Source of the DNA: Candidatus Magasanikiibacteriota bacterium
GTDB taxonomy: Bacteria; Patescibacteriota; Patescibacteriia; Magasanikbacterales; GWA2-37-8
Length of the DNA stretch: 50,195 nt
Assembly: GCA_009694865.1 (NCBI GenBank)
Contig: SICD01000003.1
Coordinates: 1 to 50,195 of the forward strand
Reading direction: 5' to 3'
Shown: one piece after another, positions 1,140 to 45,093 of the stretch
Position numbering within the stretch: the first letter of the stretch is position 1
Layout: each line of letters opens with the position of its first letter
Program-made: the position numbers and the translations under genes
The notes under the pieces: generated by a model
The model's input: only the letters and a program-made list of their open reading frames with translations
Database searches by the model: none
What the model was told of the DNA's origin: nothing

Positions 1140-1253
1140 TTCCCGTACCACGTATCCCATATCCCGTACTCGAAACGTTGGGGTACGTGATACGGGTTAT
1201 GGGTTATGGGTTATGGGTTACGAGTTACGGGTTACGAGTTACGGGTTACGGGA
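1140..1253. repeat. Inverted pair of 7-mer tandem arrays between mltG stop and queA start
   Basis: TCCCGTA/TCCCATA units on the left; GGGTTAT/GGGTTAC/GAGTTAC units on the right, which are roughly the reverse complement. Confidence 0.85.
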
Positions 1254-2090
1254 TCACAAATACTTCTTATTCGCATTATGTTCCTCCAACGTCTTACCAT
1301 AATACATCTTTCCATCCCGCCCGCTCAAAAAATACCAATATTCATTTTTCTCTGGAGAGAGAGCGGCCTTAATCGATTCTAACCCCGGGTTAGAAATCGG
1401 CCCCGGCGGAAGCCCCGGATATTTATACGTATTCCATGGAGAATCCATATCACGTTCCTTGTTAGTAGTAAACACATCGCCAGTTCTGTCAACCGCATAA
1501 TGCACGCTGGAGTCAACCTGCAAGGCCCAGCCACGCCTGACGCGCCGCCACAAAATATCAGCCACCTTAGTGCGGTCTTCGTCGTGCTTTACTTCTCTCT
1601 CAACAATGCTCGCCATCGTAATTATTTCATGCACACTCGCCCCGCTTTTATTAACCGCCTTGTATATATCGGCCGTGAACTGTTTATCACGCTCCTTAAT
1701 TAACTTCTTAATAACATCCTCTAAGCGAGCATCCGCAAACACGCGGTAGGTCTCTGGCGCCAAATACCCTTCATAGCTAATGTTGCGCTCTTTAAATTGA
1801 GTTATTGATGTATCCAGTTCAATATGTGGGCCACGATTCGCCACCATCCGGTAATCCCGAGCAGGCTCGCCTGTGATTCTATAAACATCGTCTGTGGTAG
1901 ACGCAAATCCCTTTAACACCAAATATTCCGCCACCTGCCGCAAATTCCACCCCGGAATAATTGTTATAGTCACTTCCGGGCGAGGCGGAATAGGAATATA
2001 TACGGGATGAAAATGACGATATATTTTAAAAACAAAAAAACTGCCTCCGACGAAGAATATGAGAAGAAGGACTTTAGCGCGCAAGGACAT
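1254..2090 (-). CDS. mltG: Endolytic transglycosylase MltG
   Basis: N-terminal TM; EGYLAPETY, ASIVERE, LQVDSSVHY, SPWNTYKYPGLPPGPISNPG motifs. Confidence 0.95.
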   Translation of the reverse strand: MSLRAKVLLLIFFVGGSFFVFKIYRHFHPVYIPIPPRPEVTITIIPGWNLRQVAEYLVLKGFASTTDDVYRITGEPARDYRMVANRGPHIELDTSITQFKERNISYEGYLAPETYRVFADARLEDVIKKLIKERDKQFTADIYKAVNKSGASVHEIITMASIVEREVKHDEDRTKVADILWRRVRRGWALQVDSSVHYAVDRTGDVFTTNKERDMDSPWNTYKYPGLPPGPISNPGLESIKAALSPEKNEYWYFLSGRDGKMYYGKTLEEHNANKKYL

Positions 2091-2096
2091 AGTTTA

Positions 2097-2231
2097 AAAA
2101 TCCAAATTACAAATTTCAAATCAAATCCAAAATCACAATATCAAAATTTATAATATTGCTTTTCCGCCCAAGGCGGATCCGCCTTTGGCGGAGAGCTTGA
2201 TTTGAAATTTGGAATTTGTTATTTGACATTT
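2097..2231. repeat. Inverted CAAAT-type ~7-mer arrays with a nested double-hairpin element (2163-2192)
   Basis: AAATCCAAATTACAAATTTCAAATCAAATCC... versus TTTGATTTGAAATTTGGAATTTGTTATTTGACATTT; nested TCCGCCCAAGGCGGATCCGCCTTTGGCGGA. Confidence 0.8.
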
Positions 2232-2914
2232 TCACCCCAGTTTTCTCTCGCCCACTCAAGCCGCTCCGGCACACCAATATCTATCCACGGCTTATCGGAT
2301 TCGTACACAAAAAGATTTTTCATTTTAGGGAAAACATCGTATTCAATACTAAAAGCTTTTTCGGCTAGGAAATATTTTTTCGCTCCAAAGTTAAAAATAT
2401 AAATTCCTCCGTTTTGGTAACCCGGTTTGTGCACCCCTTCTTTTTCTTTAAATTTCGTGAGATGAAAATGCGTATCATATTCCAAAGTGCCATAGCTGGC
2501 TACGTCTTTTACCTTGGCCCCCAAAATAATCCCGTTGCTATCGGGAGGTAAATATTTCGTCATATCGGCCAAATCCACGGTAGTCAAAACATCTCCGTTC
2601 AAAATTATTGTTGATTCGTCTGGTTTGGTTACATATTCCCAAGCATGTTTTATCGCGCCTCCTGTTCCCAAACGTTCCTGTTCAACGGCATAAGTAAAAG
2701 TTACGCCATTTAAATGTAGGCCAACGCGCTCAAACAACACCTCCGACAAATGCCCGGCCGCTAAGACTACTTCAGTTATCCCGATCCCTTTTAATTTTTC
2801 TAACTGCCACTCCAAAACCGTCTTGCCTTTTATTTCCAGCAAGATTTTAGGAGTATCTTTGGCAATTTCGCCGAGGCGTGTAGACAGACCTCCGCACAAA
2901 ATAATGGCGTTCAT
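2219..2914 (-). CDS. Nucleotidyltransferase (sugar-phosphate NTP transferase family)
   Basis: AIILCGGLSTRL...PK signature; LGTGGAIK, LNGDV and WIDIG motifs. Confidence 0.9.
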   Translation of the reverse strand: MNAIILCGGLSTRLGEIAKDTPKILLEIKGKTVLEWQLEKLKGIGITEVVLAAGHLSEVLFERVGLHLNGVTFTYAVEQERLGTGGAIKHAWEYVTKPDESTIILNGDVLTTVDLADMTKYLPPDSNGIILGAKVKDVASYGTLEYDTHFHLTKFKEKEGVHKPGYQNGGIYIFNFGAKKYFLAEKAFSIEYDVFPKMKNLFVYESDKPWIDIGVPERLEWARENWGENVK

Positions 2915-2920
2915 ATGAAT

Positions 2921-3448
2921 TTACGACAACATCACCAAAACATAATAAGCACCCGTTGCGACCAAACCAGCCACGGCCATTCCACCCACGATATCAAAAG
3001 GATAATGAACGCCCGCGTACACCCGCCCCCAAGAAACCCATAACGCGAGCGGCCCGAGCCCATAGGCAAACGGCAAGTGAAATATCACCGCCATAAAAAA
3101 AATAAGCCAGGCCGACATACCGTGATCGGAAGGAAATGATTTCCAATTCATAAGCGGGGTAAACAAAAGTTTGCTTTCCGTGTGTGTCATATGCGGACGC
3201 GGCTCACGAACAATAAGACCAATAAAAAGATCCAAAAACCACCCCGCCGTCCAAGTAGTTCCCAAAAACAAAATCGGTATAATGACTGCCCGTTTGCTAG
3301 GGAGATAGGCGAACAGGTCGACGATCACAAACCATACCAGCATGGCCACTACCACCAATTCCGCCCCGGCCCGACCAAAGGCATCCAACCATTTGCTCGT
3401 GCCAACCAAGGCATTAATTCTTTTAAATAAACGGACATTAAAATTCAT
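2921..3448 (-). CDS. PAP2-family phosphatase (BcrC-like undecaprenyl-diphosphatase)
   Basis: REPRP, SFPSDH and GRVYAGVHYPFD motifs; several TM segments. Confidence 0.88.
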   Translation of the reverse strand: MNFNVRLFKRINALVGTSKWLDAFGRAGAELVVVAMLVWFVIVDLFAYLPSKRAVIIPILFLGTTWTAGWFLDLFIGLIVREPRPHMTHTESKLLFTPLMNWKSFPSDHGMSAWLIFFMAVIFHLPFAYGLGPLALWVSWGRVYAGVHYPFDIVGGMAVAGLVATGAYYVLVMLS

Positions 3449-3554
3449 ATGATTTTACGAAATCATGCGATTTAACGAAATTGTGCCGAGTAACGTCCAC
3501 TAAAGCTCGGCCCGCGCAACGTCCTTTGAGGCGCGGCGTCGCATGGTTTCACCC

Positions 3555-3583
3555 ATTCTACCATTGCTCGTCTCCCCTGACAA
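3555..3583 (-). promoter_or_regulatory. Sigma70-type promoter for the PAP2-NTPtransferase-mltG-queA run
   Basis: TTGTCA-17 nt-TAGAAT with extended TG on the minus strand. Confidence 0.6.
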
Positions 3584-3604
3584 GACCGCAAATTGCCCAA
3601 AAAC

Positions 3605-3633
3605 TTGAAAAATAAACCGTATTTTGCTACACT
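3605..3633 (+). promoter_or_regulatory. Sigma70-type promoter for tRNA-Ile and rluD
   Basis: TTGAAA-17 nt-TACACT with extended TG, 13 nt before the tRNA. Confidence 0.65.
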
Positions 3634-3646
3634 AGCGGCACCTCAA

Positions 3647-3719
3647 GGGCCTGTAACTCAGCGGTTAGAGTGCCACCCTTATAAGGTGGAAGTCGATGGT
3701 TCGATTCCATCCAGGCCCA
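3647..3719 (+). tRNA. tRNA-Ile (anticodon TAT)
   Basis: Cloverleaf: GGGCCTG/CAGGCCC acceptor, ACTC/GAGT D stem, CCACC-CTTATAA-GGTGG anticodon arm (TAT at 3680-3682), GATGG-TTCGATT-CCATC T arm, discriminator A; CCA not encoded. Confidence 0.95.
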
Positions 3720-3722
3720 CTT

Positions 3723-4847
3723 ATGAACAAAGACAAGAAAATAGTTGTCGCAAAAACCCACACCGGCGAACGCCTGGATCTTTTTTTAACTAAAAAATTA
3801 CGCCTCTCGCGCTCCCAAGTTCAAAAACTCATTGCACAAGAACAAATTACCCTCAAAGGAGCGTTGCCTAAAAAAATGGGTAGTGTGGTACGCACAGGCG
3901 ACTCTATTGTTGTCATTTCGAGCGGAGCGGAGCGCAGTCGAGAAATCTCGCCGTCAATACGAGATTCCTCCACTCGTCGCTTGGGCTCCTCGGTCGGAAT
4001 GACAACGCCAACGACGCGTGCAGTTGCCGAAACCCCCGATTACGTCGTCATTAACAAACCCACCGGTCTGCTCGTGCACCCGACCCAAGCAAAAGAAACC
4101 AACACGCTCGTAGCCTGGCTAATAAAAAAATATCCCAAAATTAAAAAAGTTGGCGATCATCCCCTCCTTACCAAGGAGGGGCGGGGGGTGGTTACCGAGG
4201 CCAAGACCTTTCGTCCTGGGATTGTCCATCGCCTCGATAAAGAAGCCTCCGGACTAATGGTGGTGGCAAAAACACAACCAATGTTTGATCTGCTGAAAGA
4301 CCAATTTAAAAATCGAACGATTGAAAAAGAATATTGGGTATTGGTACACGGAAGCGTCTCTAAAGATTGGGACATTCTTACCTTCCCGATTGCCCGCTCC
4401 GAGACGCACGAGAGAATGGCCGCTCGACCGCTCACGGCTTCGCAAACGACGGCAAACCCCTCTGTATCTCTTCTTGGTAAGGGGAGAATCGCGCAACCCC
4501 CTCCTTTCCAAGGAGGGGTGGGGGTGGTTGCCGAGGATGCTGGTGCCAAGGACGCCAAAACCGAATTTTTTGTCGAAAAACGTTTTGTTAATTTTACCCT
4601 GCTTCGTGTTATAATTCACACCGGCCGCATGCACCAAATCCGCGTCCACATGCTCGCGTACAATCACCCGCTGGTAGGCGACCCTTTGTACAAACAAATA
4701 AAACGTAAAAGTAAATGGGATGAAAAATTAGGTAGAATGTTCTTACATTCCACCAAATTATCATTTACCGATTTAACCGGTGAACGACAGACGTTTGAAT
4801 CGCCATTGCCGGAAGAGTTGGAGAAATTTTTAAAAACACTTTCATAA
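3723..4847 (+). CDS. rluD: RluA/RluD-family pseudouridine synthase with S4 domain, carrying three in-frame repeat insertions
   Basis: RLDLFL..SRSQVQKLI (S4), INKPTGLLVHP, RPGIVHRLDKEASG, TGRMHQIRVH and LVGDPLY. Start taken at ATG 3723 because the ORF-track start lies inside the tRNA. Confidence 0.9.
   Translation: MNKDKKIVVAKTHTGERLDLFLTKKLRLSRSQVQKLIAQEQITLKGALPKKMGSVVRTGDSIVVISSGAERSREISPSIRDSSTRRLGSSVGMTTPTTRAVAETPDYVVINKPTGLLVHPTQAKETNTLVAWLIKKYPKIKKVGDHPLLTKEGRGVVTEAKTFRPGIVHRLDKEASGLMVVAKTQPMFDLLKDQFKNRTIEKEYWVLVHGSVSKDWDILTFPIARSETHERMAARPLTASQTTANPSVSLLGKGRIAQPPPFQGGVGVVAEDAGAKDAKTEFFVEKRFVNFTLLRVIIHTGRMHQIRVHMLAYNHPLVGDPLYKQIKRKSKWDEKLGRMFLHSTKLSFTDLTGERQTFESPLPEELEKFLKTLS
3911..4004. 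mobile_element. TGTCAT...ATGACA MITE-like palindrome inside rluD
   Basis: Terminal inverted repeats GTCATTTCGA/TCGGAATGAC with internal AATCTC/GAGATT; encodes VISSGAERSREISPSIRDSSTRRLGSSVGMT; relatives are intergenic elsewhere in the window. Confidence 0.8.
4160..4193 (+). repeat. CCCCTCCT-N5-AGGAGGGG element in rluD
   Basis: TCCCCTCCTTACCAAGGAGGGGCGGGGGGTGGTT encodes PLLTKEGRGVV, just before RPGIVHRLD. Confidence 0.8.
4455..4529 (+). repeat. Paired CCCCT..AGGGG elements in rluD
   Basis: AACCCCTCTGTATCTCTTCTTGGTAAGGGGAGA followed by CCCCCTCCTTTCCAAGGAGGGGTGGGGGTGGTT (PPPFQGGVGVV). Confidence 0.75.
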
Positions 4848-4878
4848 GTAAAAAGAGGCCTGTGGCCTCTTTTTACTT
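4846..4878. terminator. Bidirectional intrinsic terminator
   Basis: AAGTAAAAAGAGGCC-TGT-GGCCTCTTTTTACTT between convergent genes. Confidence 0.85.
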
Positions 4879-5625
4879 TCCTATCCAATGAATATAATTC
4901 TTCTCAAGACAGGCGTACCCCATATTCAAGGCATACCCAAGTAACCCCGCGACAAAAATTGCCGCATAGAGCGTAGGCGTTTCGTACACCAGCTGCGCGT
5001 CTTGCATAATGCGCCCAATACCCAACGCGCTACCGCCGATCGACATTTCTCCAAGTACCGTGAGGATAAGCGAAAACGAAATCGCGAGCCTTAACGCGGT
5101 AGATAGATTCGGCAACACTTCCGGCAACACCACCGAAAAAAATAATTGTGTCCGCGACAACCCCAGGCTCTTCCCTACCAACCGTCGCGTTGGTGAGCAG
5201 TTCACCAAACTCATCATTGTGCTCACCGCCATCAGAAGCCCAACGATAATAATAATCAAAATTAATCGCGCCGCGTCTCCAATACCAAATAAAAGTAAGA
5301 GCAACGGAATAAATGCCGATGCCGGAATTGAACGAAAAAAATCTACCCACGGAAAAAGCACGCGCCGCATGGTTGGTATTAAACCAAGTAGCGAACCAAA
5401 GATAACGCCGAGAGTAACGCCGCTAACAAGCCCAGCAATAAAACGTAAAAACGTGAAACTAACCGCTGCCAAACCTTGTGGTGTGATAAAAAATTGTAGC
5501 ACCGCGCCAGCCACCGCAACGGGCGTCGGAATAAGCAAGCGGCTGATACCACCAAAAAGCACCAGCATTTCCCAAAGTGCTAAAAAAACAATCACCGAAA
5601 TGATAAAACCTAAACGTTGGCGCAT
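4873..5625 (-). CDS. NitT/TauT (SsuC-like) ABC transporter permease
   Basis: FFRSIPASAFIPLLLLLFGIG; EAA-like region SLGLSRTQLFFSVVLPEVLP; multiple TM segments. Confidence 0.9.
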   Translation of the reverse strand: MRQRLGFIISVIVFLALWEMLVLFGGISRLLIPTPVAVAGAVLQFFITPQGLAAVSFTFLRFIAGLVSGVTLGVIFGSLLGLIPTMRRVLFPWVDFFRSIPASAFIPLLLLLFGIGDAARLILIIIIVGLLMAVSTMMSLVNCSPTRRLVGKSLGLSRTQLFFSVVLPEVLPNLSTALRLAISFSLILTVLGEMSIGGSALGIGRIMQDAQLVYETPTLYAAIFVAGLLGYALNMGYACLEKNYIHWIGK

Positions 5626-6335
5626 AAAAATCCTTGTAAATGCTGAAACGCCTCACGATAAACCACATCAAACGCCGGTGTGCCAACAAGCTTGCTCCGC
5701 CCCAATCGCGGCAAAGGTGTTTTTACTTCCGCTACAATTTTACCGGGACTCGGGGAAAGAATAATAATCCTATCAGCCAAAAGTATTGCCTGCTCGAGCG
5801 TATGTGTCACCAACACCGTTGTCATTGGCCGCGTTGCCAGCACAGTAAGAAGCCGTTCCACCACCAAAAGACTGGTATAATAATCCAAAGCCGCGAATGG
5901 TTCATCCAACAAAAACAATTCCGGTTCCTGCGCCACGGCCCGGGCAATGGCCGTAAGTTGCGCGAGCCCGCCCGAAAGTTGATACGGATATTTATCGCAG
6001 TACTTTGTTAAACCAAGCATGGTCAATATCTCCTCTCCTCGTTCGTGAGTGTTATGAGCCCCGCGAATGGCCATTTTCACATGCTGTTCTACTGTCTGCC
6101 ATGGAAAAAGCGATTCGATCACATTTTGAAAGACAAACCCAACCGGCCGAGCGGGGCGAGAAATTTTTCCAGCCGTTGGCGCCTCAAACCCGGCCAACAT
6201 TTTTAGGAGCGTTGACTTACCGCAACCATTGGGTCCCATGATGGCCACAATTTCGCCAGGATTTACCGACAAAGAAATTCCTTCGAGCACCCGATGGCTA
6301 CCATAATTTTTTGAGACTCCTGCAAATTCTATCAT
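5610..6335 (-). CDS. NitT/TauT ABC transporter ATP-binding protein
   Basis: Walker A GPNGCGKST, LSGG signature, LLDEPFAALD, VTH. Confidence 0.92.
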   Translation of the reverse strand: MIEFAGVSKNYGSHRVLEGISLSVNPGEIVAIMGPNGCGKSTLLKMLAGFEAPTAGKISRPARPVGFVFQNVIESLFPWQTVEQHVKMAIRGAHNTHERGEEILTMLGLTKYCDKYPYQLSGGLAQLTAIARAVAQEPELFLLDEPFAALDYYTSLLVVERLLTVLATRPMTTVLVTHTLEQAILLADRIIILSPSPGKIVAEVKTPLPRLGRSKLVGTPAFDVVYREAFQHLQGFLCANV

Positions 6336-6359
6336 ACACACTTACTTGTTTGCGCATCT

Positions 6360-7334
6360 CTACAAAGAGAATGCCCCTTTCACATCCACCGATTTTTTTA
6401 ATTGTTTATCGTTATATAATAGGTCCGCCTCTTGTTGAACAGGTTCAAGCTTAATTTCCGTTTGCTTTATAAAGTATGGCAAACGAATGCTATCTAGCAC
6501 TCCCGCTTCAAACGGTAAAAACTTCGCAATTGCTGCTCTCGTTTCGGCCGGGTGACTATTAATAAAATCAATTGTTTCATCAGTCGCCTCTACTAGCGCC
6601 TTAGCCACGTCAGGGCGTTCACGTTTAAATCGCCCTGCCATAACACTCGCGGCATTAGGAAAATTAGGCATGACAAATTTATCAAAAAGTCCGCTTTCAA
6701 GAACACGGGTGGTATGTTGGGATTGGCCAATAGTGGCGAGCGGTTCGAGAACAATTACTGCCGCAACCTGGCCCGAGGCAAGCGCCGCGAGTTCAAGTTC
6801 AGGATTCATCTGCACCAATTCGGCCTCTTCGGGTTTAAAGAATGAGCTAACAGTCTTGCGGTACAAATACTGGGCCGTGGAGCCTTGAAAGGCTCCCACT
6901 TTTTTACCACGCAGATCAGCGATTGTGGCAATGGTTGAACTGGGCGTTACCAATAGATACGCGAGCGGCGCCACCGGCGTTTCATTCACTAGGCTAAAAG
7001 CAACCAACTCACCAGGCGATTTATCTTGTATTGTTAAAATAAGCGGGATGTTTACTCCACCAAGCGCAGCATCAACGCTACCGCCAATGAGTGCGTCCGT
7101 GAGCTGGTTAGTAGACGCAAACTGCACGGTTTTAACATCTAAACCATATTTCTCAAAAATTTTTTGTTCGATCCCCACAAACACGGGGGCATACAAATCG
7201 TGCGTACGGTAACCGATTATCACCGTCTGCGGCGCTACTGTTACCAACGACTCCGATTTTGTTTTAAACAAACCAACGGCAGCGATGGCCACAATGGCCA
7301 CAGCGGCAATCCCCATCCAAAGTTTTTTGGACAT
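6360..7334 (-). CDS. NitT/TauT/SsuA-like ABC substrate-binding protein
   Basis: N-terminal anchor; TIADLRGKKVG, ALASGQVAA and EP motifs; adjacent to the ATPase and permease. Confidence 0.88.
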   Translation of the reverse strand: MSKKLWMGIAAVAIVAIAAVGLFKTKSESLVTVAPQTVIIGYRTHDLYAPVFVGIEQKIFEKYGLDVKTVQFASTNQLTDALIGGSVDAALGGVNIPLILTIQDKSPGELVAFSLVNETPVAPLAYLLVTPSSTIATIADLRGKKVGAFQGSTAQYLYRKTVSSFFKPEEAELVQMNPELELAALASGQVAAVIVLEPLATIGQSQHTTRVLESGLFDKFVMPNFPNAASVMAGRFKRERPDVAKALVEATDETIDFINSHPAETRAAIAKFLPFEAGVLDSIRLPYFIKQTEIKLEPVQQEADLLYNDKQLKKSVDVKGAFSL

Positions 7335-7551
7335 ACGAGTTTGAGTTAACCTGCTCTATGGCAGGTAGGAATAAAATTTAAATTAGTTTTTATATTTCCT
7401 CCTCTCACCACTCAAATTTTTGAGAAGTCAGAGGAAGTGCCAGGGCAGTGCTGGCGGGTGTTTGATGCGCGGGAGTGCGCAGGCTGCCAGGGGATTCCGA
7501 CGGTAATCCGCCGTCGGTCGGAAAAAAGGAGCGACTGGAGCACCTCGCTCT

Positions 7552-8490
7552 TTAGAACTCCACCTTCCAGACGAATCCGAGCTTGAAGTCGCACACGTAC
7601 ATGCAGCTTCCGTCCGGGTGGAACCGCACGCAGCTCGGCTCACCGAAGCCGCACGCCACCGGCGGAACGAAGCGCATGTCGTACTTTTTGGTGACGCCAT
7701 CGGCATCGTGCGGCACGACCTTGACGCACTCGCCGCCGCGCTCAGCGACGTAGAGGTGGCCGTTCGTGGGGTGGGTGATCATGCCGAGGGGCTTCTTCAG
7801 GCCGTTGGCCAGAAACGGCATGTTGGGCGACCAGCTCGTGTGGTTCGTGATGTCGAAGACGGTCCCGAGACCGGCGTGGAGGTACAGCATCTTGCCCTGA
7901 TAGCCGACCGCCGTCCAGCAACCGCAGTCGCCCGCCTTGTTGCCGTTCATGCTCATCACGTACGGCATCTCGCGCAGGCCGTTGGGGAAGCCACGAACGC
8001 GGATCTTGTCCTCGCTGAAGCATCCACCCTCCTCCATGCGCACGAGTCCGTTCTCGAGCTGCACCGGTCCCGAATCCTCTCCCCCGCTGAAGGTGCAGAA
8101 CACCTCGCCCTGGTAGGAGAGCAAGCCGTACGGCCCCGGCACGCCAGCGAAGAACACGGGCGCCTCCATGGCGTCACCACCCTTCGTGATGTCCAGCACC
8201 ACGCCCCGACCCGTGTCGGAGATGAGGGTGCGGTTCCCCTGGTAGTTGGTGAGGAGCCCCGCCGGGTGGCGGAGATTCCAGGCGAACGGCTTGGCCCCGC
8301 GCATGTTGCCACCCTCGGTTACGTCCACGACGTAGCCGCCGCCGAAGGCGCTTGCGAGGAGCCGGCCATCCGGCGTCCACTCCATGTGCGTGATGCCGTG
8401 GACGCTGTGCGCGTGAATGGTCACGCGCTTGGGAGGGCGCAACGCCTCCTCATCGGGGGACAGACGAAAATCGAAGCTGAGATCGCCCAT
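7552..8490 (-). CDS. GC-rich beta-propeller protein (NHL/SMP-30-like repeats), function unknown
   Basis: Repeated blades LRHPAGL, LKKPLGMITHPTNGHLYVAE and FGEPSCVRFHPDGSCMYVCD; GGAGG SD; C/G-ending codons. Confidence 0.7.
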   Translation of the reverse strand: MGDLSFDFRLSPDEEALRPPKRVTIHAHSVHGITHMEWTPDGRLLASAFGGGYVVDVTEGGNMRGAKPFAWNLRHPAGLLTNYQGNRTLISDTGRGVVLDITKGGDAMEAPVFFAGVPGPYGLLSYQGEVFCTFSGGEDSGPVQLENGLVRMEEGGCFSEDKIRVRGFPNGLREMPYVMSMNGNKAGDCGCWTAVGYQGKMLYLHAGLGTVFDITNHTSWSPNMPFLANGLKKPLGMITHPTNGHLYVAERGGECVKVVPHDADGVTKKYDMRFVPPVACGFGEPSCVRFHPDGSCMYVCDFKLGFVWKVEF

Positions 8491-8618
8491 CGTTTTCCTC
8501 CAGGTACAAGATTGATCGCTCGCACGAGGCGAGGTTCACTGCCTGATTGCAGAGAACGTTTTACTATACCCCTAAACCAAACAAACGCCAATACTATCGA
8601 CAAAAGATATTAACATAC

Positions 8619-8647
8619 TTGACAAAATAGCTAGAATAAGGTATAAT
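8619..8647 (+). promoter_or_regulatory. Consensus sigma70 promoter of the TrmB-like gene
   Basis: TTGACA-17 nt-TATAAT; a divergent TTGGCG-17-TATAGT lies at 8591-8563 on the minus strand. Confidence 0.8.
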
Positions 8648-8744
8648 AAGAGTATTAAAATGTTGTCGGAAATATCGGCGTTTATTTGGCCAAACGGGCC
8701 TCACCCTCCGTCCCCCTCCTTGAGGAGAGGGGAAAACACATCAT

Positions 8745-9473: not shown

Positions 9474-9498
9474 CACCTGCATTAATTACGGCTACAAT
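9470..9498 (+). promoter_or_regulatory. Sigma70 promoter
   Basis: TTGACA-17 nt-TACAAT overlapping the TrmB stop codon. Confidence 0.7.
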
Positions 9499-9500
9499 AA

Positions 9501-9536
9501 CGCAATCGCGTTTAGGATTTAGAAATTAGTGCTTAG
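9501..9536 (+). repeat. Direct repeat copy 1 (copy 2 at 10622-10657)
   Basis: 34/36 identical to 10622-10657. Confidence 0.9.
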
Positions 9537-9561
9537 TCTTTATTTTTTAATAAAATTATAT

Positions 9562-10605: not shown

Positions 10606-10621
10606 AAAATCGCCACACTAT

Positions 10622-10657
10622 CGCAATCACGTTTAGAATTTAGAAATTAGTGCTTAG
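10622..10657 (+). repeat. Direct repeat copy 2 (gmk leader)
   Basis: CGCAATCACGTTTAGAATTTAGAAATTAGTGCTTAG. Confidence 0.9.
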
Positions 10658-10670
10658 AAATTTTTAATAT

Positions 10671-11237: not shown

Positions 11238-11241
11238 ACCC

Positions 11242-11270
11242 TTGACGGAAAGTAGGAAATAGGCTAGAAT
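11242..11270 (+). promoter_or_regulatory. Sigma70 promoter for rplS
   Basis: TTGACG-17 nt-TAGAAT. Confidence 0.7.
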
Positions 11271-11285
11271 AGGGCAGTTATTTTG

Positions 11286-11369: not shown

Positions 11370-11390
11370 AAATCCATTGTAATAAATTAT

Positions 11391-11738: not shown

Positions 11739-11769
11739 ATTTAGACTGATGTGGCGAGGATTTAAACAG

Positions 11770-36101: not shown

Positions 36102-36132
36102 ATTACTTACTATTTATCCTAAACAAATTAGT

Positions 36133-38034: not shown

Positions 38035-38961
38035 AAAATTCTTCACTAATTTTTCCGCCGCGGTAACAAATTCGTCTGTAATCCAATTAATTCGCTGATC
38101 TCGTTTAAACCAGGTCAGCTGTCGTTTCGCGTAACGCCGCGTTTCTGTCTTAATAATAACGATAGCGTCTTCAAGCGTACATTCTCCCCGCCAATAACTC
38201 CCTATTTGCTTATACCCAATACTACTCATGCTCGGCAAATTCCAATCATAACATTGCTTCATCAAAATTTCAGTTTCTCTTACCAAACCACGCCTTATCT
38301 GTTCGTCAACGCGCCCCTCCAAACGCGCTATTAGTTCATTCTTTTCCCAAGCTAGTCCAATCTGCAAAGTGTTAACCAGCGGAGCGGCCATCCGGCGCTG
38401 ATGGACGAATGATTCACCGCTCAAAATATTCACTTCCAAAGCCCGCGTCACTCGGCGTGGATTATTCATATCAACAAATTTAGCGGCTTCGGGGTCAAGG
38501 CTTGTTAAAAGCGCGCGCAAGTCCGAAAGCGGCTTCTCTTCCAAACTCCGGCGTAATTTTTTATTGGGCGCGATTTTTGGCATATCCAAATTATCCACCA
38601 CCGCCCAAATATATAAGCCGGTGCCCCCCACTAAAAACGGGATTTTGCCCCGCGCGGTAATATCTTGAATCGCCGCGCACGCCAAGGCTTTAAATTCCGC
38701 CACGCTCATCTCATACCCGGGATCAACCATGTCCATTCCATAATGCGGGATCCCCTCGACCACATATATTGCCCGCCCACCAACCGTTTGCCATTCCCCA
38801 GCGGGCTTAGCGGTACCAATATCCATCTTTTTAAAAATCTGGCGCGAATCCGCGGAAATAATTTCGCCATTAAATTTTCGCGCTAACGAAATGGCCAAAT
38901 CCGTCTTGCCAGAAGCCGTAGGGCCAAGTATAACGACTAATTTAGGAAGGTGATTTTTCAT
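38017..38961 (-). CDS. miaA: tRNA dimethylallyltransferase
   Basis: GPTASGKT, ISADSRQ, DIGTAK, VGGTGLY, TRRYAKRQLTWF. Confidence 0.97.
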   Translation of the reverse strand: MKNHLPKLVVILGPTASGKTDLAISLARKFNGEIISADSRQIFKKMDIGTAKPAGEWQTVGGRAIYVVEGIPHYGMDMVDPGYEMSVAEFKALACAAIQDITARGKIPFLVGGTGLYIWAVVDNLDMPKIAPNKKLRRSLEEKPLSDLRALLTSLDPEAAKFVDMNNPRRVTRALEVNILSGESFVHQRRMAAPLVNTLQIGLAWEKNELIARLEGRVDEQIRRGLVRETEILMKQCYDWNLPSMSSIGYKQIGSYWRGECTLEDAIVIIKTETRRYAKRQLTWFKRDQRINWITDEFVTAAEKLVKNFLVSRE

Positions 38962-39012
38962 ATACACACTATTCTAATCGCCATCTGCTAAACCGTCAAA
39001 TACTCCAACCAC

Positions 39013-39041
39013 TTGACAAACGGTCAATTTTATGCTATAAT
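39013..39041 (+). promoter_or_regulatory. Perfect consensus sigma70 promoter
   Basis: TTGACA-17 nt-TATAAT with extended TG; divergent from the miaA promoter (TTGACG-17-TAGAAT). Confidence 0.8.
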
Positions 39042-39121
39042 TACTCTTGTAATTGGCTTAAATAAGCCAAATTAGCTAATCTTAGGTCCCTGCCTAAGCC
39101 AAGCTTTAATCTTTACATACT

Positions 39122-39211
39122 ATGGGAGAAGTAGCTAACCCAGCGGAAAACCAGCTCTTTAGAGTAAAAACACCTGAAGAAAAATTTTTTGACGATTCCG
39201 CTTTTAACTAA
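39122..39211 (+). CDS. Putative 29-aa small ORF (or gene remnant)
   Basis: MGEVANPAENQLFRVKTPEEKFFDDSAFN*, between the consensus promoter and a terminator. Confidence 0.4.
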   Translation: MGEVANPAENQLFRVKTPEEKFFDDSAFN

Positions 39212-39233
39212 CAGATTCTCACAACCTCTATAC

Positions 39234-39270
39234 AAAAAAATCTCTCCCGATTATTTGGGAGAGATTTTTT
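39234..39270. terminator. Bidirectional terminator (thrS / small unit)
   Basis: AAAAAAATCTCTCCC-GATTATTT-GGGAGAGATTTTTT. Confidence 0.88.
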
Positions 39271-39272
39271 AT

Positions 39273-41027
39273 TTACCGTCTTTCTCGTATTTCTGCTTTT
39301 ACCTTTTCAATAAATTCATTCTTAACCATCTTCAATTGTTCCTCGACACCACGCACGCGTATCGTCCATTCTCCGCCTTCGAGCTCCCTGTCCCCCACCA
39401 CCACAATATACGGAATTTTTTGTTTAGCCGCATTGCGCACTTTTTTACCAATAGATTCATCAGCATCATCCATCGCAGCGCGGATACCGGCCCTCTGAAA
39501 TTCCTCCAAAAGTTTTTTGGCTCCATCCACGTGCTTTTCAGAAACCGGCGCGAGCATTACCTGCACGGGTGAAAGCCAAACCGGAAACGCGCCGGCGTAG
39601 TGTTCGATAAGAAACGCCATAATGCGCTCAATCGCTCCGATGGAAGATCGATGGACTACCACCGCCCGTTTTTCCGTTCCGTCTTCGGCGTTATATTTCA
39701 AATCAAACCGCTCTGGCATGCACAGATCATACTGCACAGTAAAGGCGGTGTCTTCCTTGCCGTTCACGTTTTTCATCTGAATATCCACTTTCGGACCATA
39801 AAAGGCGGCTTCGCCAGGCGCTTCCACAAAACGACTACCCCGAGCAGTCAAATGCTTTCGGAGCAAATCTTCTGCCTTCTCCCAACCCGCGTCATTCTTG
39901 TAATATTTTTCTGAATTGGAGCGGTCGCCGAGTGAAAGCCGATACCAATACTCGGTGCCGTGTACCAAACCAAATACGCCAGCGATATATTCAATCAAAT
40001 CTAACGCCTTGCCCACTTCCGCCACGGCTTGCTCTTCCGAAGCACAAATAATGTGGGCATCAGCGAGGCAAAATGCGCGGACTCGCTGTAAACCGGAAAG
40101 CTCGCCCGATTGTTCGTAACGATACAACTGCGCCAATTCCGCAATTCTCACCGGCAATTCGCGGTAGCTGTGCGGTTTACGGAGGTAGAGCTCAAAATGA
40201 TGCGGGCAGGTCATGGGTCGGAGCATGAATTCCTCGTCATCAATTTTTATGGGCGCGTACATGGAATCTTTATAGTGCGGATAATGCCCGGATTTTTTAT
40301 ACAAATCAAGCTTGGCAATATCCGGCGTTCTCACGTGCAAATACCCGCGACGAAGTTCCTCATCAACAATAAACCGCTCCAATTCACGCCGTATCGTGGC
40401 GCCTTTTTCCGTCCACAAGGGCAACCCTTTGCCGACGCTTTCGGAAAAAGTAAATAAATCCAGCTCCTTGCCCAATTTTTTATGGTCTCGCATTTTAGCT
40501 TCTTCCAACATCGTTAAATGTTTCTGAAGTTCATCTTTAGTTGGAAAACAGGTGCCATAAATGCGCGTCAGCATTTTATTTTTCTCACTCCCGCGCCAAT
40601 ACGCTCCTGCCACGGACATGAGTTTAAAATGTTTAATTTCATCTTTAGGGTGTTCCAAATGCCCGCCTTTGCAGAGGTCGAGAAATTCACCCTGCTTGGT
40701 TTCGGTAATCATTTTCCCCTGCATCGCAAACTCATCAATCAATTCGGATTTATAAATATTCCAAGCAAAATCTTTTTTCGCCTGCGCTACCGGCACTTCT
40801 TGAATAGCAAAAGTATCCCAAGTTTTTAAAACTTCTCGCATCTTATTTTCTATTTTCTCAAAATCTTCCTCGGAGATTTTTACCTCTCCCATATCAAAAT
40901 CCTGATAAAAACCGTCCTCTATGGAAGGGCCAATGGCATTTTGCGCGCTCGGCCAAATACTTCGCACGGAGGCGGCCAAAAGATGAGCGCAGGAGTGGCG
41001 GAGATTGTTTAGGTGTTCTTGGTCCAT
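39273..41027 (-). CDS. thrS: Threonine--tRNA ligase (short form lacking the N-terminal TGS domain)
   Basis: LRHSCAHLLA, DLCKGGH, RDHKKLGKEL, LRPMTCPHH, GEAAFYGPK, VHRSSIGAIER. Confidence 0.97.
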   Translation of the reverse strand: MDQEHLNNLRHSCAHLLAASVRSIWPSAQNAIGPSIEDGFYQDFDMGEVKISEEDFEKIENKMREVLKTWDTFAIQEVPVAQAKKDFAWNIYKSELIDEFAMQGKMITETKQGEFLDLCKGGHLEHPKDEIKHFKLMSVAGAYWRGSEKNKMLTRIYGTCFPTKDELQKHLTMLEEAKMRDHKKLGKELDLFTFSESVGKGLPLWTEKGATIRRELERFIVDEELRRGYLHVRTPDIAKLDLYKKSGHYPHYKDSMYAPIKIDDEEFMLRPMTCPHHFELYLRKPHSYRELPVRIAELAQLYRYEQSGELSGLQRVRAFCLADAHIICASEEQAVAEVGKALDLIEYIAGVFGLVHGTEYWYRLSLGDRSNSEKYYKNDAGWEKAEDLLRKHLTARGSRFVEAPGEAAFYGPKVDIQMKNVNGKEDTAFTVQYDLCMPERFDLKYNAEDGTEKRAVVVHRSSIGAIERIMAFLIEHYAGAFPVWLSPVQVMLAPVSEKHVDGAKKLLEEFQRAGIRAAMDDADESIGKKVRNAAKQKIPYIVVVGDRELEGGEWTIRVRGVEEQLKMVKNEFIEKVKAEIRERR

Positions 41028-41052
41028 AGCGTTGAGATTTCAACTATATAAA

Positions 41053-41478
41053 TTAATTATATTCTTCATACTCAATTTTCATCCCGCCTCTCTCAAACTC
41101 CCCAACCAATTCATTTATAACCTGACCATAATTAAGAAACACCGGAATGGTAAAATTCGATCCTTCTTCTCTCGCTAATTCCACTATTTTATTTGCTACA
41201 GCCAAATATGATGGTGGGCCAGATTTTTCGAAAACAGAAAAACTGATTCTTTGTTCTATGGCTAAACGTAAATTTTCGTTAGTACAGTGCCCGCGCAACA
41301 ATTTAATACACTTAAGTTTTTGGGCCGGGCTGCCTTCAAATTTTTTTATAATTATTCTGTATTGCTTAATTGTTTCCGACTTATCTTTTGCGGAGTCTTC
41401 TCTGCGCTGTTTATTTGCTGCCTCCCTCAAGTACGCAAAAGGGTCTTCATTACGAGTAGAAAATGGTGGTTTGGACAT
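41053..41478 (-). CDS. Hypothetical protein between the T-box and thrS
   Basis: 141-aa AT-rich ORF with ATG just after the T-box terminator. Confidence 0.65.
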   Translation of the reverse strand: MSKPPFSTRNEDPFAYLREAANKQRREDSAKDKSETIKQYRIIIKKFEGSPAQKLKCIKLLRGHCTNENLRLAIEQRISFSVFEKSGPPSYLAVANKIVELAREEGSNFTIPVFLNYGQVINELVGEFERGGMKIEYEEYN

Positions 41479-41495
41479 AAATAAGAGTTAAAAAT

Positions 41496-41685
41496 AAAAA
41501 AAACCCGATAAGCCTAAAACAGGCCGTATCGGGGTCTGTGATAAATCACGGACGGTTCCACCCGAAAGTTTCGCTCATTCACCAGCTGTCATCCCGACCG
41601 AAGTGCAGGGATCCCTCGACTTCGCTCGGGATGACAGTTGAATTTATTCACAGCGAGATTGGTAGTCTCGCATCAACCAGACTGA
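41496..41685 (-). promoter_or_regulatory. Thr T-box riboswitch (transcription attenuator)
   Basis: Antiterminator TCGGG-TGGAACC-GTCCGTGAT..ATCACAGAC-CCCGA overlaps terminator CCCGATA..TATCGGG-T8; ACC lies in the loop of a 5' hairpin; upstream of thrS. Confidence 0.85.
41587..41636. mobile_element. Short TGTCAT...ATGACA element inside the T-box leader
   Basis: TGTCATCCCGACCGAAGT...ACTTCGCTCGGGATGACA. Confidence 0.8.
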
Positions 41686-41689
41686 ATCT

Positions 41690-41718
41690 ACTATACAAAA
41701 TAATGAATTGACTGTCAA
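41690..41718 (-). promoter_or_regulatory. Promoter of the T-box/thrS unit
   Basis: TTGACA-17 nt-TATAGT. Confidence 0.75.
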
Positions 41719-41720
41719 GG

Positions 41721-41825
41721 GATTGCCACGTCCCCCGCAGCTGCGGGGTCCTCGCAATGACACAATTGGCCGCCGCTCACAATCTTCTAATCTTTTCCGC
41801 CCGAGGCGGATCAGCCTTGGGCTGA
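41721..41825. repeat. Cluster of palindromic elements
   Basis: GATTGCCACG...CTCGCAATGAC half element (41721-41761) and TCCGCCCGAGGCGGATCAGCCTTGGGCTGA (41796-41825; same family as 2163-2192). Confidence 0.7.
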
Positions 41826-41831
41826 TAATCT

Positions 41832-42980
41832 TCACTGGACATTTTTTACGATCACTTTAATCTTATCCGGCACGCTCGGCGCGCTTAACATCCACGAGGG
41901 CGAAAACTTAACATCCACCTGGGCCACATGCTCCAGCCCCAAAACATAACGTTCAATATCGGCTTTTTTCTTGCTCAAAAAGTGTTCGGCGCTTAAGGCG
42001 TCCCCATTAGCCTCCAGCGTTACCCCCACATCTTGGCGGACGCTTAATTCAGCTGTGCCCTCTTTAGCGTTAAAACTAACCACCGTTACCTGCGGCGCGC
42101 CTGCGCCGGCCGCCACAAAGCGCTCGGCTCCCGCGTCAACTTTATCGGCAATTTGTTTATTTACCAAAGCGACAAGCTCGCTCGCGGTATAGCGCACCAC
42201 CACAATCGTGCTGGTACCGCTCACGGTAAAACCGGTCACTTCTTCACCGGCTTTGTGGTCAGCCTTGGCGTGGCTATCTAATACCGTTACAATCTGTGCC
42301 ATTTGATCATCGCTGTCTTTGAGACTCTTCCGAAACGCTTCTTCAACCTTTTGTTTATAGGCAAGTTCGGCGCTCTTAATATCATCGGCGCTTAAAATGG
42401 CTAAACTGGCCACGCCGCCGCTCATTGGGGCAGTACTCTCGGCAAAAATAACCTTTTGTTTGTCGGTAACCAGACCCGGAATAGTAAATGAACTGGGGGC
42501 AATATCATAGGCGGCGCCTTTTTGGTCCGCATACACCCGCGCCGTAATCTGGCCATTGGCCGGGACAGTAACACCTTCGCTTAATCGGAACAATGCCCCG
42601 CCCGGAGTGAGGAAACGCGTCGTTTTAACCAGGGACTGTGCGGTCTTGGTTTTATTAAAAATAACCACCGCGCCAGTCGCTATTCCCGCTACAGTCTTAT
42701 TGCCGGTCGGGTGAAAATCTTCGCTCCACGGAAAAATTTGAGATTGCACACTACCCACCACACTGCTCGCGGCCACCACTTTTGCGCCCACACCAACCGC
42801 CAAGGCGATGCTCTTGATGTCATTTTTCGCCACAATGGTAATGACGGCCTTTTTGGAGGTCATAAAAATAACCAGTGCCAAAAGAATAATAGTGACAGCC
42901 AAAAAAGATAAGGCAATAATTTTATAAAACTTCACCGATGGCTCCAAAGGAGGTTGAGTAGCAAGACGATACGTTATCAT
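41832..42980 (-). CDS. Membrane-anchored protein with baseplate-J-like region (CPR-common)
   Basis: TM; ATGAVVIFN...QSLVKTTRF..G.LFRL...VTVPA...VYADQ.G..Y.I....FTIPGL. Confidence 0.65.
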   Translation of the reverse strand: MITYRLATQPPLEPSVKFYKIIALSFLAVTIILLALVIFMTSKKAVITIVAKNDIKSIALAVGVGAKVVAASSVVGSVQSQIFPWSEDFHPTGNKTVAGIATGAVVIFNKTKTAQSLVKTTRFLTPGGALFRLSEGVTVPANGQITARVYADQKGAAYDIAPSSFTIPGLVTDKQKVIFAESTAPMSGGVASLAILSADDIKSAELAYKQKVEEAFRKSLKDSDDQMAQIVTVLDSHAKADHKAGEEVTGFTVSGTSTIVVVRYTASELVALVNKQIADKVDAGAERFVAAGAGAPQVTVVSFNAKEGTAELSVRQDVGVTLEANGDALSAEHFLSKKKADIERYVLGLEHVAQVDVKFSPSWMLSAPSVPDKIKVIVKNVQ

Positions 42981-43026
42981 AGATCAAAATACAGTAAAAA
43001 ATGATTACAATTATAGTATAACATAA

Positions 43027-43136
43027 AAATGCCAAAATCCCAATGACAAATGTCAAATCAAGCTCAAAATCCAAAAACGTGTCGTCAATTTGAACTTTGA
43101 CATTGATTTGGCATTTGAAATTTGTTATTTGAAATT
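43027..43136. repeat. Inverted CAAAT-type 7-mer arrays after the pilB stop
   Basis: CCAATGACAAATGTCAAATCAA versus TTGATTTGGCATTTGAAATTTGTTATTTGAAATT. Confidence 0.85.
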
Positions 43137-43140
43137 CACG

Positions 43141-44883
43141 TCATTCCGCCACCCGGAAAACTTCTTCAATCGTCGTAATTTTGTCCAAAGCCTTCAAAAG
43201 CCCGTCTTGCACCATCGTCACCATTCCATTTTTAACCGCCATTTCCTGGATGGTATATTCAGAAACTTTACTGCTCAAAATAACCTCTTCAATTTCTTTC
43301 GAGAGATGGAAAATTTCATAAATACTAATGCGCCCTTTATATCCCAAACCACTGCAAGCCGAGCACCCGGCGCCTTTATAAAAATGGAGATTATTTAGAT
43401 CAAACGATAGCTTTTCTTTTTCGGGCAATGCTTCCAAAATTCCTTTCACCCGCGCCAAACGTTCGGGGTCCAGCGTCTCTTCGATTTTGCAAACTTCGCA
43501 AATTCGACGCACCAAGCGTTGTCCAATCACCGCGTTAAGGGCCGGCGCGAGCAAAAACGGTTTGACCCCCATTGATAAAAACCTGGGGATAACCCCCGCC
43601 GCGCTGTTGGTGTGGATAGTGGACAGCATAAGATGACCGGTGAGCGCCGCTTGGATGGCGATTTCCGCGGTTTCTAAATCCCGAATTTCGCCGACCATGC
43701 AAATATCCGGATCTTGACGCAAAATACTGCGGAGCCCCTTGGCAAAACTATAATCATGGCTCGCGTCCACCTGGCTTTGGTTGATTCCATTCATTTTAAT
43801 TTCAATCGGGTCTTCCAAAGTAATAATTTTTACCCCAGGCTTATTTAATTCATGTAACACAGCGTACATAGTGGTAGTTTTACCACTACCCGTGGGACCA
43901 GTGGTAATAACCATGCCATTAGGACGTAAAATTTCCCGTTTTAATTCTTCGTACACTGTGCCGCGCAGACCCAGTTCATCAAAACTCACACCCTTACTGC
44001 CGCTATGCAAAATACGCATCACCACGCTCTCGCCATGAATAGTAGGCAAGGTCGAAACGCGAATATCCAGACTCCCCCCCGATAGTTGCAAAGTAACACG
44101 GCCATCCTGCGGACGATCGGTAACATTAATTTTAAGCGCCGCCAACAATTTTATGCGCGATACAAACCGTTGCCACTGCTCTTTTGGCAAATGCGCTACA
44201 TCGTGAAGGATACCATCAATACGATACCGAACGGCAATATCATCCTGCTCGGCCTCAATATGAATATCGGTAGCGTTAACCTTAAGCGCCGACGCCACCA
44301 CCAGCGTTAAAATATCGGTAATGGTAACATTGCGAAATGACTCCTCCAAACTTTGCAGATTATCCACCCCCGCCACATATTTTTCTAAATCTTCATCGGT
44401 AATAATAAAATCTTTCGAAATTGGTTTTACGATTGGTAAATTGCCATACAATTTTAAAACCCTTTCCAAACTATGCGGCGACATAAGATATGGCCTCACG
44501 GTGGCGTGAAATCGCTCGCCAAGCTGATACAAAACATCATCCAATTCCGACCGCGGCTCTACCACGCCCACCCGCATTTCTTCCGGCGTAAAATAAAAAC
44601 AGGCTATCCCCTCCGCGCGCGCCTGATTCTCGGGGATGGCTCGCAGTGCCTCCGCCGATACCGGAAACGCGCTCAAATCAATATGCGGCATCCCCAATTT
44701 ACGCGCCTCTTCCGCCACCAGTATTTCTTTTTCTTTCAAGGTAATTTCTTCCATTTTGCTCGCAAAAATTTGCTGGGCGCTGTGAGTAGTGTTGCCTTTA
44801 GCGCCCCGGGAACCGCCCGATGCTTTAGTTGGCACACCACTCTTGCTTCTGCTAATATCACTAATTGAAGGAAAATCGGACAT
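43141..44883 (-). CDS. pilB: Type IV pilus assembly ATPase (PilB/GspE family)
   Basis: ATDIHIE, PQDGR, GPTGSGKTTT, TLEDPIE, LRQDPD, AALTGHLMLSTIHTN, CxxC pairs. Confidence 0.9.
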   Translation of the reverse strand: MSDFPSISDISRSKSGVPTKASGGSRGAKGNTTHSAQQIFASKMEEITLKEKEILVAEEARKLGMPHIDLSAFPVSAEALRAIPENQARAEGIACFYFTPEEMRVGVVEPRSELDDVLYQLGERFHATVRPYLMSPHSLERVLKLYGNLPIVKPISKDFIITDEDLEKYVAGVDNLQSLEESFRNVTITDILTLVVASALKVNATDIHIEAEQDDIAVRYRIDGILHDVAHLPKEQWQRFVSRIKLLAALKINVTDRPQDGRVTLQLSGGSLDIRVSTLPTIHGESVVMRILHSGSKGVSFDELGLRGTVYEELKREILRPNGMVITTGPTGSGKTTTMYAVLHELNKPGVKIITLEDPIEIKMNGINQSQVDASHDYSFAKGLRSILRQDPDICMVGEIRDLETAEIAIQAALTGHLMLSTIHTNSAAGVIPRFLSMGVKPFLLAPALNAVIGQRLVRRICEVCKIEETLDPERLARVKGILEALPEKEKLSFDLNNLHFYKGAGCSACSGLGYKGRISIYEIFHLSKEIEEVILSSKVSEYTIQEMAVKNGMVTMVQDGLLKALDKITTIEEVFRVAE

Positions 44884-44964
44884 ATGATTTTACTCTCGCG
44901 AGGAAAATCACTTCGCAGCGACCCACCGGGAGCGGAGAAGATTCCTCTGAAACATATAATTAAA

Positions 44965-45093
44965 AAATCCTAAATTCGAATATCGAAATCCGAAACAAAT
45001 TTCAAATGTCAAATCAAATTCAAAACCCCAAACCCAAATTTGCCATTTAGACTTTGGATTTGATTTGACATTTGTTATTTGGATTTTGAAATT
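44965..45093. repeat. Inverted 7-mer arrays upstream of pilB
   Basis: AAATCCTAAATTCGAATATCGAAATCCGAAACAAATTTCAAATGTCAAATCAAAT versus ATTTGATTTGACATTTGTTATTTGGATTT. Confidence 0.85.

Follow-up and report, generated by a model that had tools for sequence, protein, structure and literature searches.

The window analyzed here, 50,195 nucleotides forming contig C18 of a Candidatus Magasanikiibacteriota genome (G000; 987 kb in 55 contigs, 94.7% complete), carries at many of its gene junctions inverted arrays of short tandem units with no gene between them. Our favored explanation, to which we would give a probability of about 0.65, is that these gene-less arrays are non-coding members of families of hairpin-armed cassettes and that the families are selfish elements. 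The cargo of a cassette is one of two small genes, one encoding the four-helix-bundle "IVS protein" (PF05635; IVS, intervening sequence), here called IVP, and the other encoding GxxExxY, a PD-(D/E)XK-like protein (PF13366). By analogy with known systems, the elements may best be read as built like the intervening sequences of rRNA and distributed like REPIN/RAYT systems.

The link between arrays and cargo is clearest at the cargo genes themselves. In G000, each of the seven PF05635 genes lies between inverted periodic arrays built from a unit of its own, and all three PF13366/TIGR04256 GxxExxY genes are likewise enclosed by such arrays. GxxExxY is a second cargo, unrelated to the four-helix-bundle gene and absent from an earlier note on this DNA. 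Among the PF05635 loci of relatives (labeled L0xx), 25 of 28 are flanked likewise, as judged by eye; the exceptions are L010, a spurious frame; L021; and L023, a reverse-transcriptase-like open reading frame (ORF). The IVP of the window scores 85.5 bits against PF05635 and 81.2 bits against TIGR02436, and its closest solved relative is 2GSC, with five chains of its sequence in one entry. This reference cassette lies between a sugar-transferase gene and a glycosyltransferase gene (Tandem Repeats Finder arrays at 29394-29422 and 29817-29851; inverted arms at 29395-29421/29825-29851). For its RNA (29385-29860), the predicted minimum-free-energy and centroid folds are both closed by the two arrays (z = -3.5), and predicted folds of 33 gene-less hairpins, long and imperfect, range from -17.5 to -79.6 kcal/mol. 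Cargo genes lie in sense to the upstream neighbor in 9 of 10 cases in G000 and at 24 of 24 loci in relatives, and to the downstream neighbor in 10 of 10 and 23 of 24, respectively. It seems likely that the arrays sit in transcribed gaps, either from stop to start within operons or in 5′ leaders.

Arrays of this kind are abundant across the genome. In a genome-wide scan the number of periodic segments was 172; three second-order Markov simulations of the genome gave 3, 4, and 9. The scan also returned 16 reciprocal inverted pairs, where the simulations had none. For 50 of the 172 segments, an inverted partner scored beyond the null's 99th percentile. The earlier note's view that arrays are not random with respect to gene ends is borne out as well, with 41 of the 50 paired segments intergenic in a genome that is about 17% intergenic by crude gene calls (p = 5e-24), and arrays occupy the whole gap from stop codon to start codon. 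Sites 11283, 32247, 43028, and 44996, along with several arrays in relatives, escaped the first, strict detector. A second, more sensitive one, calibrated on genic windows to a false-positive rate of 1 in 1,500 genic 150-nt windows, was positive in 50 of 540 intergenic gaps (37 of 402 tandem, 11 of 75 divergent, and 2 of 63 convergent); it also calls a few non-periodic GC-rich palindromes (C16:10491, C4:17165, and C53:21219).

The gene-less copies fall into sequence families, some of which include a gene-bearing cassette. Clustering 64 elements by common 6-mers gave a CAAATNN family of 17 members, one of them with an IVP gene (G000:C37:4512-4966), that takes in window sites 2094, 17702, 43028, and 44996. 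Site 43028 and the C37 cassette have in common an irregular inner arm string of about 29 nt, nearly identical in the two. Because such irregular, non-periodic inner strings are held in common, the CAAATNN sites of the window are copies of one another and not independent products of slippage. A AATTTCTAA family has five members, of which one again carries an IVP gene; a further IVP cassette, on C19, has the AATTTCTAA unit but was left unclustered. Each of the three GxxExxY cassettes of G000 has one or two empty copies with its arms: site 11283-11372 clusters with the arms of cassette C25:30326-30646, and the empties of the other two are C50:10891, and C35:12525 with C52:20375. No family cluster holds two cargo copies. 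Four families, AAAGTTAT, AAGATTA, CCCGTAA, and GGCTTGG, are without a cargo gene in G000. The AAAGTTAT cluster comprises 10 elements, 2 with a GTTTATT unit and 8 read as the AAAGTTAT type, and the CCCGTAA family (site 1141) comprises 2. In relatives, both GGCTTGG and AAAGTTAT arms are found around an IVP gene: the former in the sister species G001 (L011), the latter in G015 (L022), where the gene is truncated to 56 codons.

The earlier note had taken the gene-less arrays for empty or decayed versions of the four-helix-bundle cassette. The kinship holds, given four window sites in a family with an IVP copy, and in part the arrays do appear to be relics of cassettes. A single parent for all of them does not: site 11283-11372 matches GxxExxY arms, and G001 has a GxxExxY cassette at the junction where G000 has its IVP cassette.

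Nor can we follow the suggestion that architecture rather than sequence is what is recognised or generated, which is contradicted by the arm-sharing families, by units that track the IVP tree, and by a conserved inner arm. In that tree, sisters with like units include L011/L015 (GGCTT), L008/L012 (GTATT), L032/L020 (AATTTTT), and G000-C37/L034 (CAAAT), with L014/L026 an exception. Protein identity correlates with the number of common repeated 6-mers (Mantel rho 0.19, p = 0.0008, n = 30). A comparison of G000 with G039, a genome from another taxonomic family, gave 90% identity for the inner 5′ arm, 48-80% for the gene, and 20-40% for the DNA beyond the arms. Shuffling the order of units in one arm lowered mean complementarity from 17.1 to 14.8 and was significant in 10 of 38 elements; in most elements, pairing rests on the common unit core and not on a mirror copy.

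Arrays and cargo genes also go together across relatives. Among 41 related genomes, PF05635 is present in 17 and PF13366 in 7, all 7 within those 17 (Fisher p = 0.0009, with relatedness ignored). We sampled 34-100 kb per genome from contig starts chosen blind to content. Eight genomes without either gene gave no paired arrays in 739,645 nt and 0-7 periodic segments per 100 kb, while eight with cargo genes gave 24 paired arrays in 677,703 nt and 7-31 segments per 100 kb. At least two paired arrays were found in seven of the eight cargo-bearing genomes (Mann-Whitney p = 0.0007, with no correction for relatedness). As judged by eye, most empties sampled from G029 and G030 are built from the units of the IVP cassettes of their own genome.

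Orthologous junctions show turnover. What the sugar-transferase/glycosyltransferase junction holds differs from genome to genome: in G000, the IVP cassette; in G030, an IVP cassette built of another unit, its gene with an internal stop; in G001, a GxxExxY cassette of yet a third unit; in G014 and G002, arrays without a gene; and in G007 and G021, a bare gap of 1-17 nt. The orthologue of junction 1140-1253 holds CAAAT-type empties in G014 and, in G021, one array and the C-terminal half of a PF05635 gene. The latter and L022 of G015 can be taken as decay intermediates. In the rplS leader, G000, G014, and G002 have arrays of differing units, each past a promoter-like site. Hairpin 44996-45081 is missing from all five relatives compared (gaps of 14-61 nt), with G001 retaining the outer left units only. 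Thus, the expectation that orthologous junctions in relatives carry a four-helix-bundle gene was borne out in G030 and, with a truncated gene, in G021; the further expectation of the same unit was not, the unit never being that of G000. The G000 and G030 IVPs fall in a common five-member clade (support 92/82) and are not sisters, and vertical inheritance of the cassette at this junction is not shown by these sequences.

How might such elements persist? We infer that they are selfish and spread or persist only with the help of a cargo protein that recognizes the units of its own family. The stem formed in an operon transcript would rejoin the upstream stop and the downstream start, such that insertion would do little harm, and it may be cut by RNase III. 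Empties and solo arrays could come about both by arm copying and by internal deletion of cassettes. One can envision, more tentatively and against the odds, that a cargo gene and its own-unit arrays make up a self-maintaining replicator of the REPIN/RAYT type with different proteins. In it, an oligomer would read four to six of its own units in single-stranded or hairpin nucleic acid and promote the insertion of hairpin copies between the stop and start codons of neighboring genes in transcribed operons, where the stem would render them nearly harmless. A role for reverse transcription is unlikely, because 8 of the 17 PF05635-carrying genomes have no RVT_1 match and G015 has a sub-threshold one only; genomes without a match include G001, G007, G012, G017, G018, G022, G029, G037, and G039. 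Retro-mobility via a reverse transcriptase was rejected on this ground.

Several points weigh against reading the arrays as members of selfish cassette families. With the seven IVP proteins as tblastn queries against all G000 empties, no coding remnants were found beyond translations of the arrays themselves. For individual window sites, decayed and never-gene-bearing copies are therefore indistinguishable, and change could have run either way, by gene loss or by gene gain. In 28 of 38 elements, arm complementarity is no greater than with shuffled units. The covariation of unit and protein would also be expected from plain co-inheritance, from which these results do not separate recognition by the protein. 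The samples of two cargo-bearing genomes, G009 (100 kb) and G007 (a syntenic 65 kb), are without paired arrays. The association of cargo with arrays ignores phylogeny, and joint invasion and loss of gene and arrays would also produce it. We know of no transposase-like activity for either cargo family. By eye, no convincing target-site duplication was seen at the junctions compared, including the cassette junction and 44965-45093. Set against a miniature inverted-repeat transposable element and its autonomous transposon, the elements have inverted ends, and none of the cargo genes was found to belong to a transposase family. Finally, no insertion polymorphism was seen in contigs of four metagenome DNA runs over 27000-46999, a comparison that counts neither for nor against mobility, since rare variants are invisible in contigs. 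The cassette was spanned unchanged in run X1, and the only array joints were between the 43077 and 45053 arms, which we read as other CAAATNN copies in the metagenome.

The match between units and proteins could also mean that the arrays are binding sites. IVP and GxxExxY would then be sequence-specific binders, for example a ring reading four to six tandem units, and the arrays a regulon that includes the autoregulated cargo genes, with no mobility. One gene per family cluster, units that track the protein tree, an arm conserved more than the gene it flanks, and complementarity that comes mostly from the unit core all fit such a regulator. So do the five chains of 2GSC and a Xanthomonas S23p structure that is called a homopentamer in excerpts of one report (PMC4990558). 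Arrays are also somewhat rarer at convergent junctions (0 of 87 in the strict scan, p = 0.016; 2 of 63 in the sensitive scan, p = 0.10), a shortage that is a trend only. However, two unrelated protein folds would need one site architecture, and AAAGTTAT, AAGATTA, and CCCGTAA, without a cognate gene in a 94.7%-complete genome, would be sites without a reader. The junctions targeted belong to unrelated housekeeping genes with no common theme, and the sites are not conserved between genera. We consider a regulon unlikely.

A second possibility is that the hairpins belong to the host, having arisen in place as operon punctuation (mRNA stabilizers, RNase III sites, or attenuators) in which genes lodged later. 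Their apparent location in transcribed gaps and 5′ leaders, their stable predicted folds, and the presence of an RNase III gene (rnc) in G000 would agree with this, as would the recurrence of arrays at some junctions (the rplS leader in G000, G014, and G002; the cassette junction in five of seven genomes). It is difficult to reconcile with the eight relatives that lack paired arrays in 740 kb sampled, with the absence of site 44996 from five of five relatives, or with multi-copy families having irregular arm strings in common, which point to copying and not to local origin. Positional coincidence of arrays at orthologous junctions was significant at a middle threshold (6 of 31 versus 1 of 45, p = 0.016) but not at a strict (2 of 22 versus 2 of 54) or a loose one (8 of 31 versus 5 of 45); positional conservation thus depends on the threshold, and we do not rely on it. 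We give host-owned structures little credence.

Simple repeats might expand by slippage in AT-rich spacers, palindromic by chance or through local inverted duplication, and be unlinked to the small genes. Unequal arm lengths (about 5 versus 10.4 units at 1141-1256), unit numbers that differ among family members, and a perfect heptamer run within a coding gene (26433-26466) are what slippage would leave. It would not account for non-periodic irregularities common to copies at different loci, for array-flanked cargo in 10 of 10 cases, for the lack of paired arrays in sampled cargo-less genomes, or for the absence of inverted pairs from simulated DNA, and we regard it as very improbable. Equally hard to credit are intrinsic terminators of an unusual repeat-built kind, a reading that was rejected: some hairpins follow stop codons and CAAATNN right arms are T-rich, but a terminator scan of 1-20000 called none of the four inverted arrays there while canonical GC-stem/T-run terminators occur elsewhere (12346-12329), and the arrays are mostly found between co-oriented genes or ahead of start codons, with 11 of 50 between divergent genes and one starting about 13 nt past a promoter-like site.

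Of the known systems closest to the cassettes, none matches in full. Excerpts of one report describe, in the 23S rRNA intervening sequence of Coxiella burnetii (helix 45), tandem GACAGAT heptamers beside the S23p ORF, with a copy number that varies among strains, a stem that is cut by RNase III, and an element regarded as selfish with a decaying ORF (PMC4990558). As far as such excerpts go, the ORF-bearing 23S rRNA intervening sequences of Coxiella, Leptospira, and others resemble the present cassettes in that complementary ends form a stem looping out an S23p/PF05635 ORF, here in a predicted fold, and in that the element lies, here probably, within a host transcript. Membership in PF05635 is found in the IVP cassettes and not in the gene-less copies or the GxxExxY cassettes. 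Unlike the rRNA elements, those described here lie between protein-coding genes and in mRNA leaders; most copies are gene-less, a second cargo occurs in the same build, and whole arms are tandem arrays of many unit families per genome.

REPIN populations with their RAYT genes (PMC3116915, PMC3337134) offer a second comparison. Such populations are dispersed intergenic hairpin families with at most one gene each, flanked by like repeats. The elements of G000 are likewise dispersed intergenic hairpins in sequence families with a single cargo gene between matching repeats; the repeats are absent from sampled genomes without the gene, and gene-less families look like relics. They differ in that the proteins are PF05635 and PF13366/TIGR04256 and not HUH/Y1 (IS200/IS605-like) transposases, and in that the arms are tandem 7- to 9-nt arrays and not single REP palindromes, with the cargo inside the hairpin loop. 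Avd of diversity-generating retroelements (NF033474) has the four-helix-bundle superfamily fold in common with IVP; the Avd model, however, gives the window protein 33.7 bits, less than its cut-off of 80 bits, and RVT_1 is wanting in the genomes noted above.

In heterocystous cyanobacteria, intergenic tandem heptanucleotide repeats called STRRs have no known function; the tandem 7- to 9-mers in intergenic DNA here may be comparable, in a host that is not a cyanobacterium and has a 0.99-Mb genome. Our literature search found no description of such cassettes or of gene-less copies outside rRNA, subscription journals and supplements being beyond its scope. The four-helix-bundle/23S rRNA IVS protein family and the GxxExxY family are both widespread and, to our knowledge, without established function. 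This genome ties together these two families of small proteins and the unexplained intergenic heptamer repeats. Were the replicator reading true, it would give the "IVS protein" family a first function, make rRNA intervening sequences one landing site among many, and might account for unexplained heptamer repeats such as STRRs.

The architecture of individual elements offers further observations. At L028 (G002; locus about 1330-1470), an empty hairpin abuts an IVP cassette with an identical unit (arm-loop-arm-gene-arm), which suggests tandem insertion or arm duplication. In one IVP subfamily (G000:C37:4512-4966, L029, and L019), the gene takes its ATG and first codons from a CAAATGN unit of the 5′ arm, so that the arm overlaps the coding sequence. 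GC-rich palindromes are nested in the loops of two gene-less hairpins (about 2150-2196 and G000:C11:53219-53437), and in cassette L034 of G039 one separates an arm from the gene; other small elements thus seem drawn to the tips of hairpins. At G000:C50:4331-4412 and C50:25353-25514, paired arrays fall within long ORFs by crude gene calls, and these may be in-frame insertions or wrong gene calls.

Within the window, Tandem Repeats Finder was run with a minimum score of 30, and inverted arms were located by a separate repeat search. An Rfam scan of the window gave two tRNAs and RNase P RNA, nothing more, and no Rfam family at any array. The elements are listed in the table.

Arrays and cassettes of the window (positions count from the first nucleotide of the window)
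Feature	Position	Strand	Composition
Gene-less inverted arrays	1141-1256		Left arm CCCGTAY-type, ~5 units (1141-1176); right arm GGGTTAC x10.4, period 7 (1180-1252)
Gene-less CAAATNN hairpin	2094-2231		Tandem Repeats Finder 2097-2147 and 2200-2231; inverted arms 2103-2124/2197-2218 (95%)
Solo (T/A)TTAG-type array	9511-9536	+	Direct copy of 10632-10660; just downstream of promoter-like site 9470-9498
Solo array	10632-10660	+	TTTAGAA x2.7, period 7; direct copy of 9511-9536; Tandem Repeats Finder 10632-10650
Gene-less hairpin, weakly periodic	11283-11372		GCGAAT words; arms 11283-11327/11328-11372 (76%)
Solo array	12339-12380		TGTGACAA x3.1, period 8; Tandem Repeats Finder 12346-12370
Gene-less CAAATNN hairpin, between divergent genes	17702-17819		Arrays 17709-17765 and 17788-17818; arms 17713-17766/17761-17814
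Gene-less AAAGTTAT-family hairpin	20123-20219		Arrays 20127-20152 and 20186-20215; arms 20127-20152/20194-20219
Solo array, absent from the earlier note's list	26197-26239		CAATTTAR units; Tandem Repeats Finder and genome scan
Weak solo array	27920-27966		AATCCGT words; no Tandem Repeats Finder row; abuts ATG at 27967
Reference IVP cassette	29391-29854	+	ACACGACA-type arms 29391-29426 and 29816-29854; PF05635/TIGR02436 ORF 29442-29798
Short hairpin, weakly periodic	32247-32305		ACACGA/ACACAT words; arms 32247-32269/32283-32305
Gene-less CAAATNN hairpin	43028-43136		Array 43087-43136; arms 43028-43075/43089-43136
Gene-less CAAATNN hairpin	44965-45093		Core 44996-45081, outer AAATCCG-type units; array 44965-45024; arms 44996-45024/45053-45081 (90%)

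The tandem 7- to 9-nt units that had been described as inverted arrays at eight junctions are real, and six of the eight are clearly periodic. Sites 11283-11372 and 32247-32305 are good hairpins of weak periodicity, with no Tandem Repeats Finder row. The half copies that had been proposed are mostly sound: 12346-12370 and 10632-10650 are solid and 9511-9536 is a direct copy of the 10632 stretch, with 27920-27966 the weak one.

The pair 1141-1176/1180-1256 was found by the analysis-specific scan, with 1180-1252 as its Tandem Repeats Finder row, and its unequal arms suggest one-sided slippage. It fills the gap from the stop of a YceG-like gene to the start of queA, whose true ATG is at 1133. The naive ORF call starts queA at an in-array ATG (1160), whereas the full Pfam match begins at 1133. 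For annotation this is of some consequence, as such elements occupy about 50 junctions of a 1-Mb genome, and start codons are displaced in naive ORF calls, as with queA. The 2094-2231 hairpin separates the start of the YceG-like gene from the stop of an NTP-transferase gene and has a GC-rich double hairpin (the palindrome noted above) nested in its loop. Hairpin 11283-11372 lies in the 5′ leader of rplS (L19), about 13 nt past a promoter-like site (11242-11270); 20123-20219 directly follows the stop of a solute-binding-protein gene; 43028-43136 is upstream of a pilB-like ATPase gene junction; and 32247-32305 is tentatively related to the reference cassette 2.4 kb away.

As to the solo arrays, 12339-12380 stands between the stop of a gene on the minus strand (12436-15291) and the canonical terminator at 12346-12329. 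The arrays 9511-9536 and 10632-10660 belong to two direct copies of a stretch of about 45 nt that contains (T/A)TTAG heptads; each copy follows closely on a promoter-like site and precedes one of two consecutive genes. The AATCCGT words of 27920-27966 resemble the arms of GxxExxY cassette C50:13681-14147, and the unit of 26197-26239 makes a full hairpin in G001 (L037:6254-6332).

Three further features of the window deserve mention. The perfect (TGAACTC) x4.9 run at 26433-26466 is in frame in a riboflavin-synthase-like gene (26213-26788, minus strand), where it encodes residues 108-119 (KFRVQSSEFRVH); the corresponding loop of the G001 orthologue is longer and different. The bacterial RNase P RNA at 25074-25569 (RF00010, 124 bits) measures 496 nt against a 367-position model and probably carries insertions. 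At 20230-20375, a tRNA-like 5′ half (GGGGACGTGGCGGAATTGGTATAC...) and, after it, GC-rich hairpins precede an intact tRNA (20376-20457).

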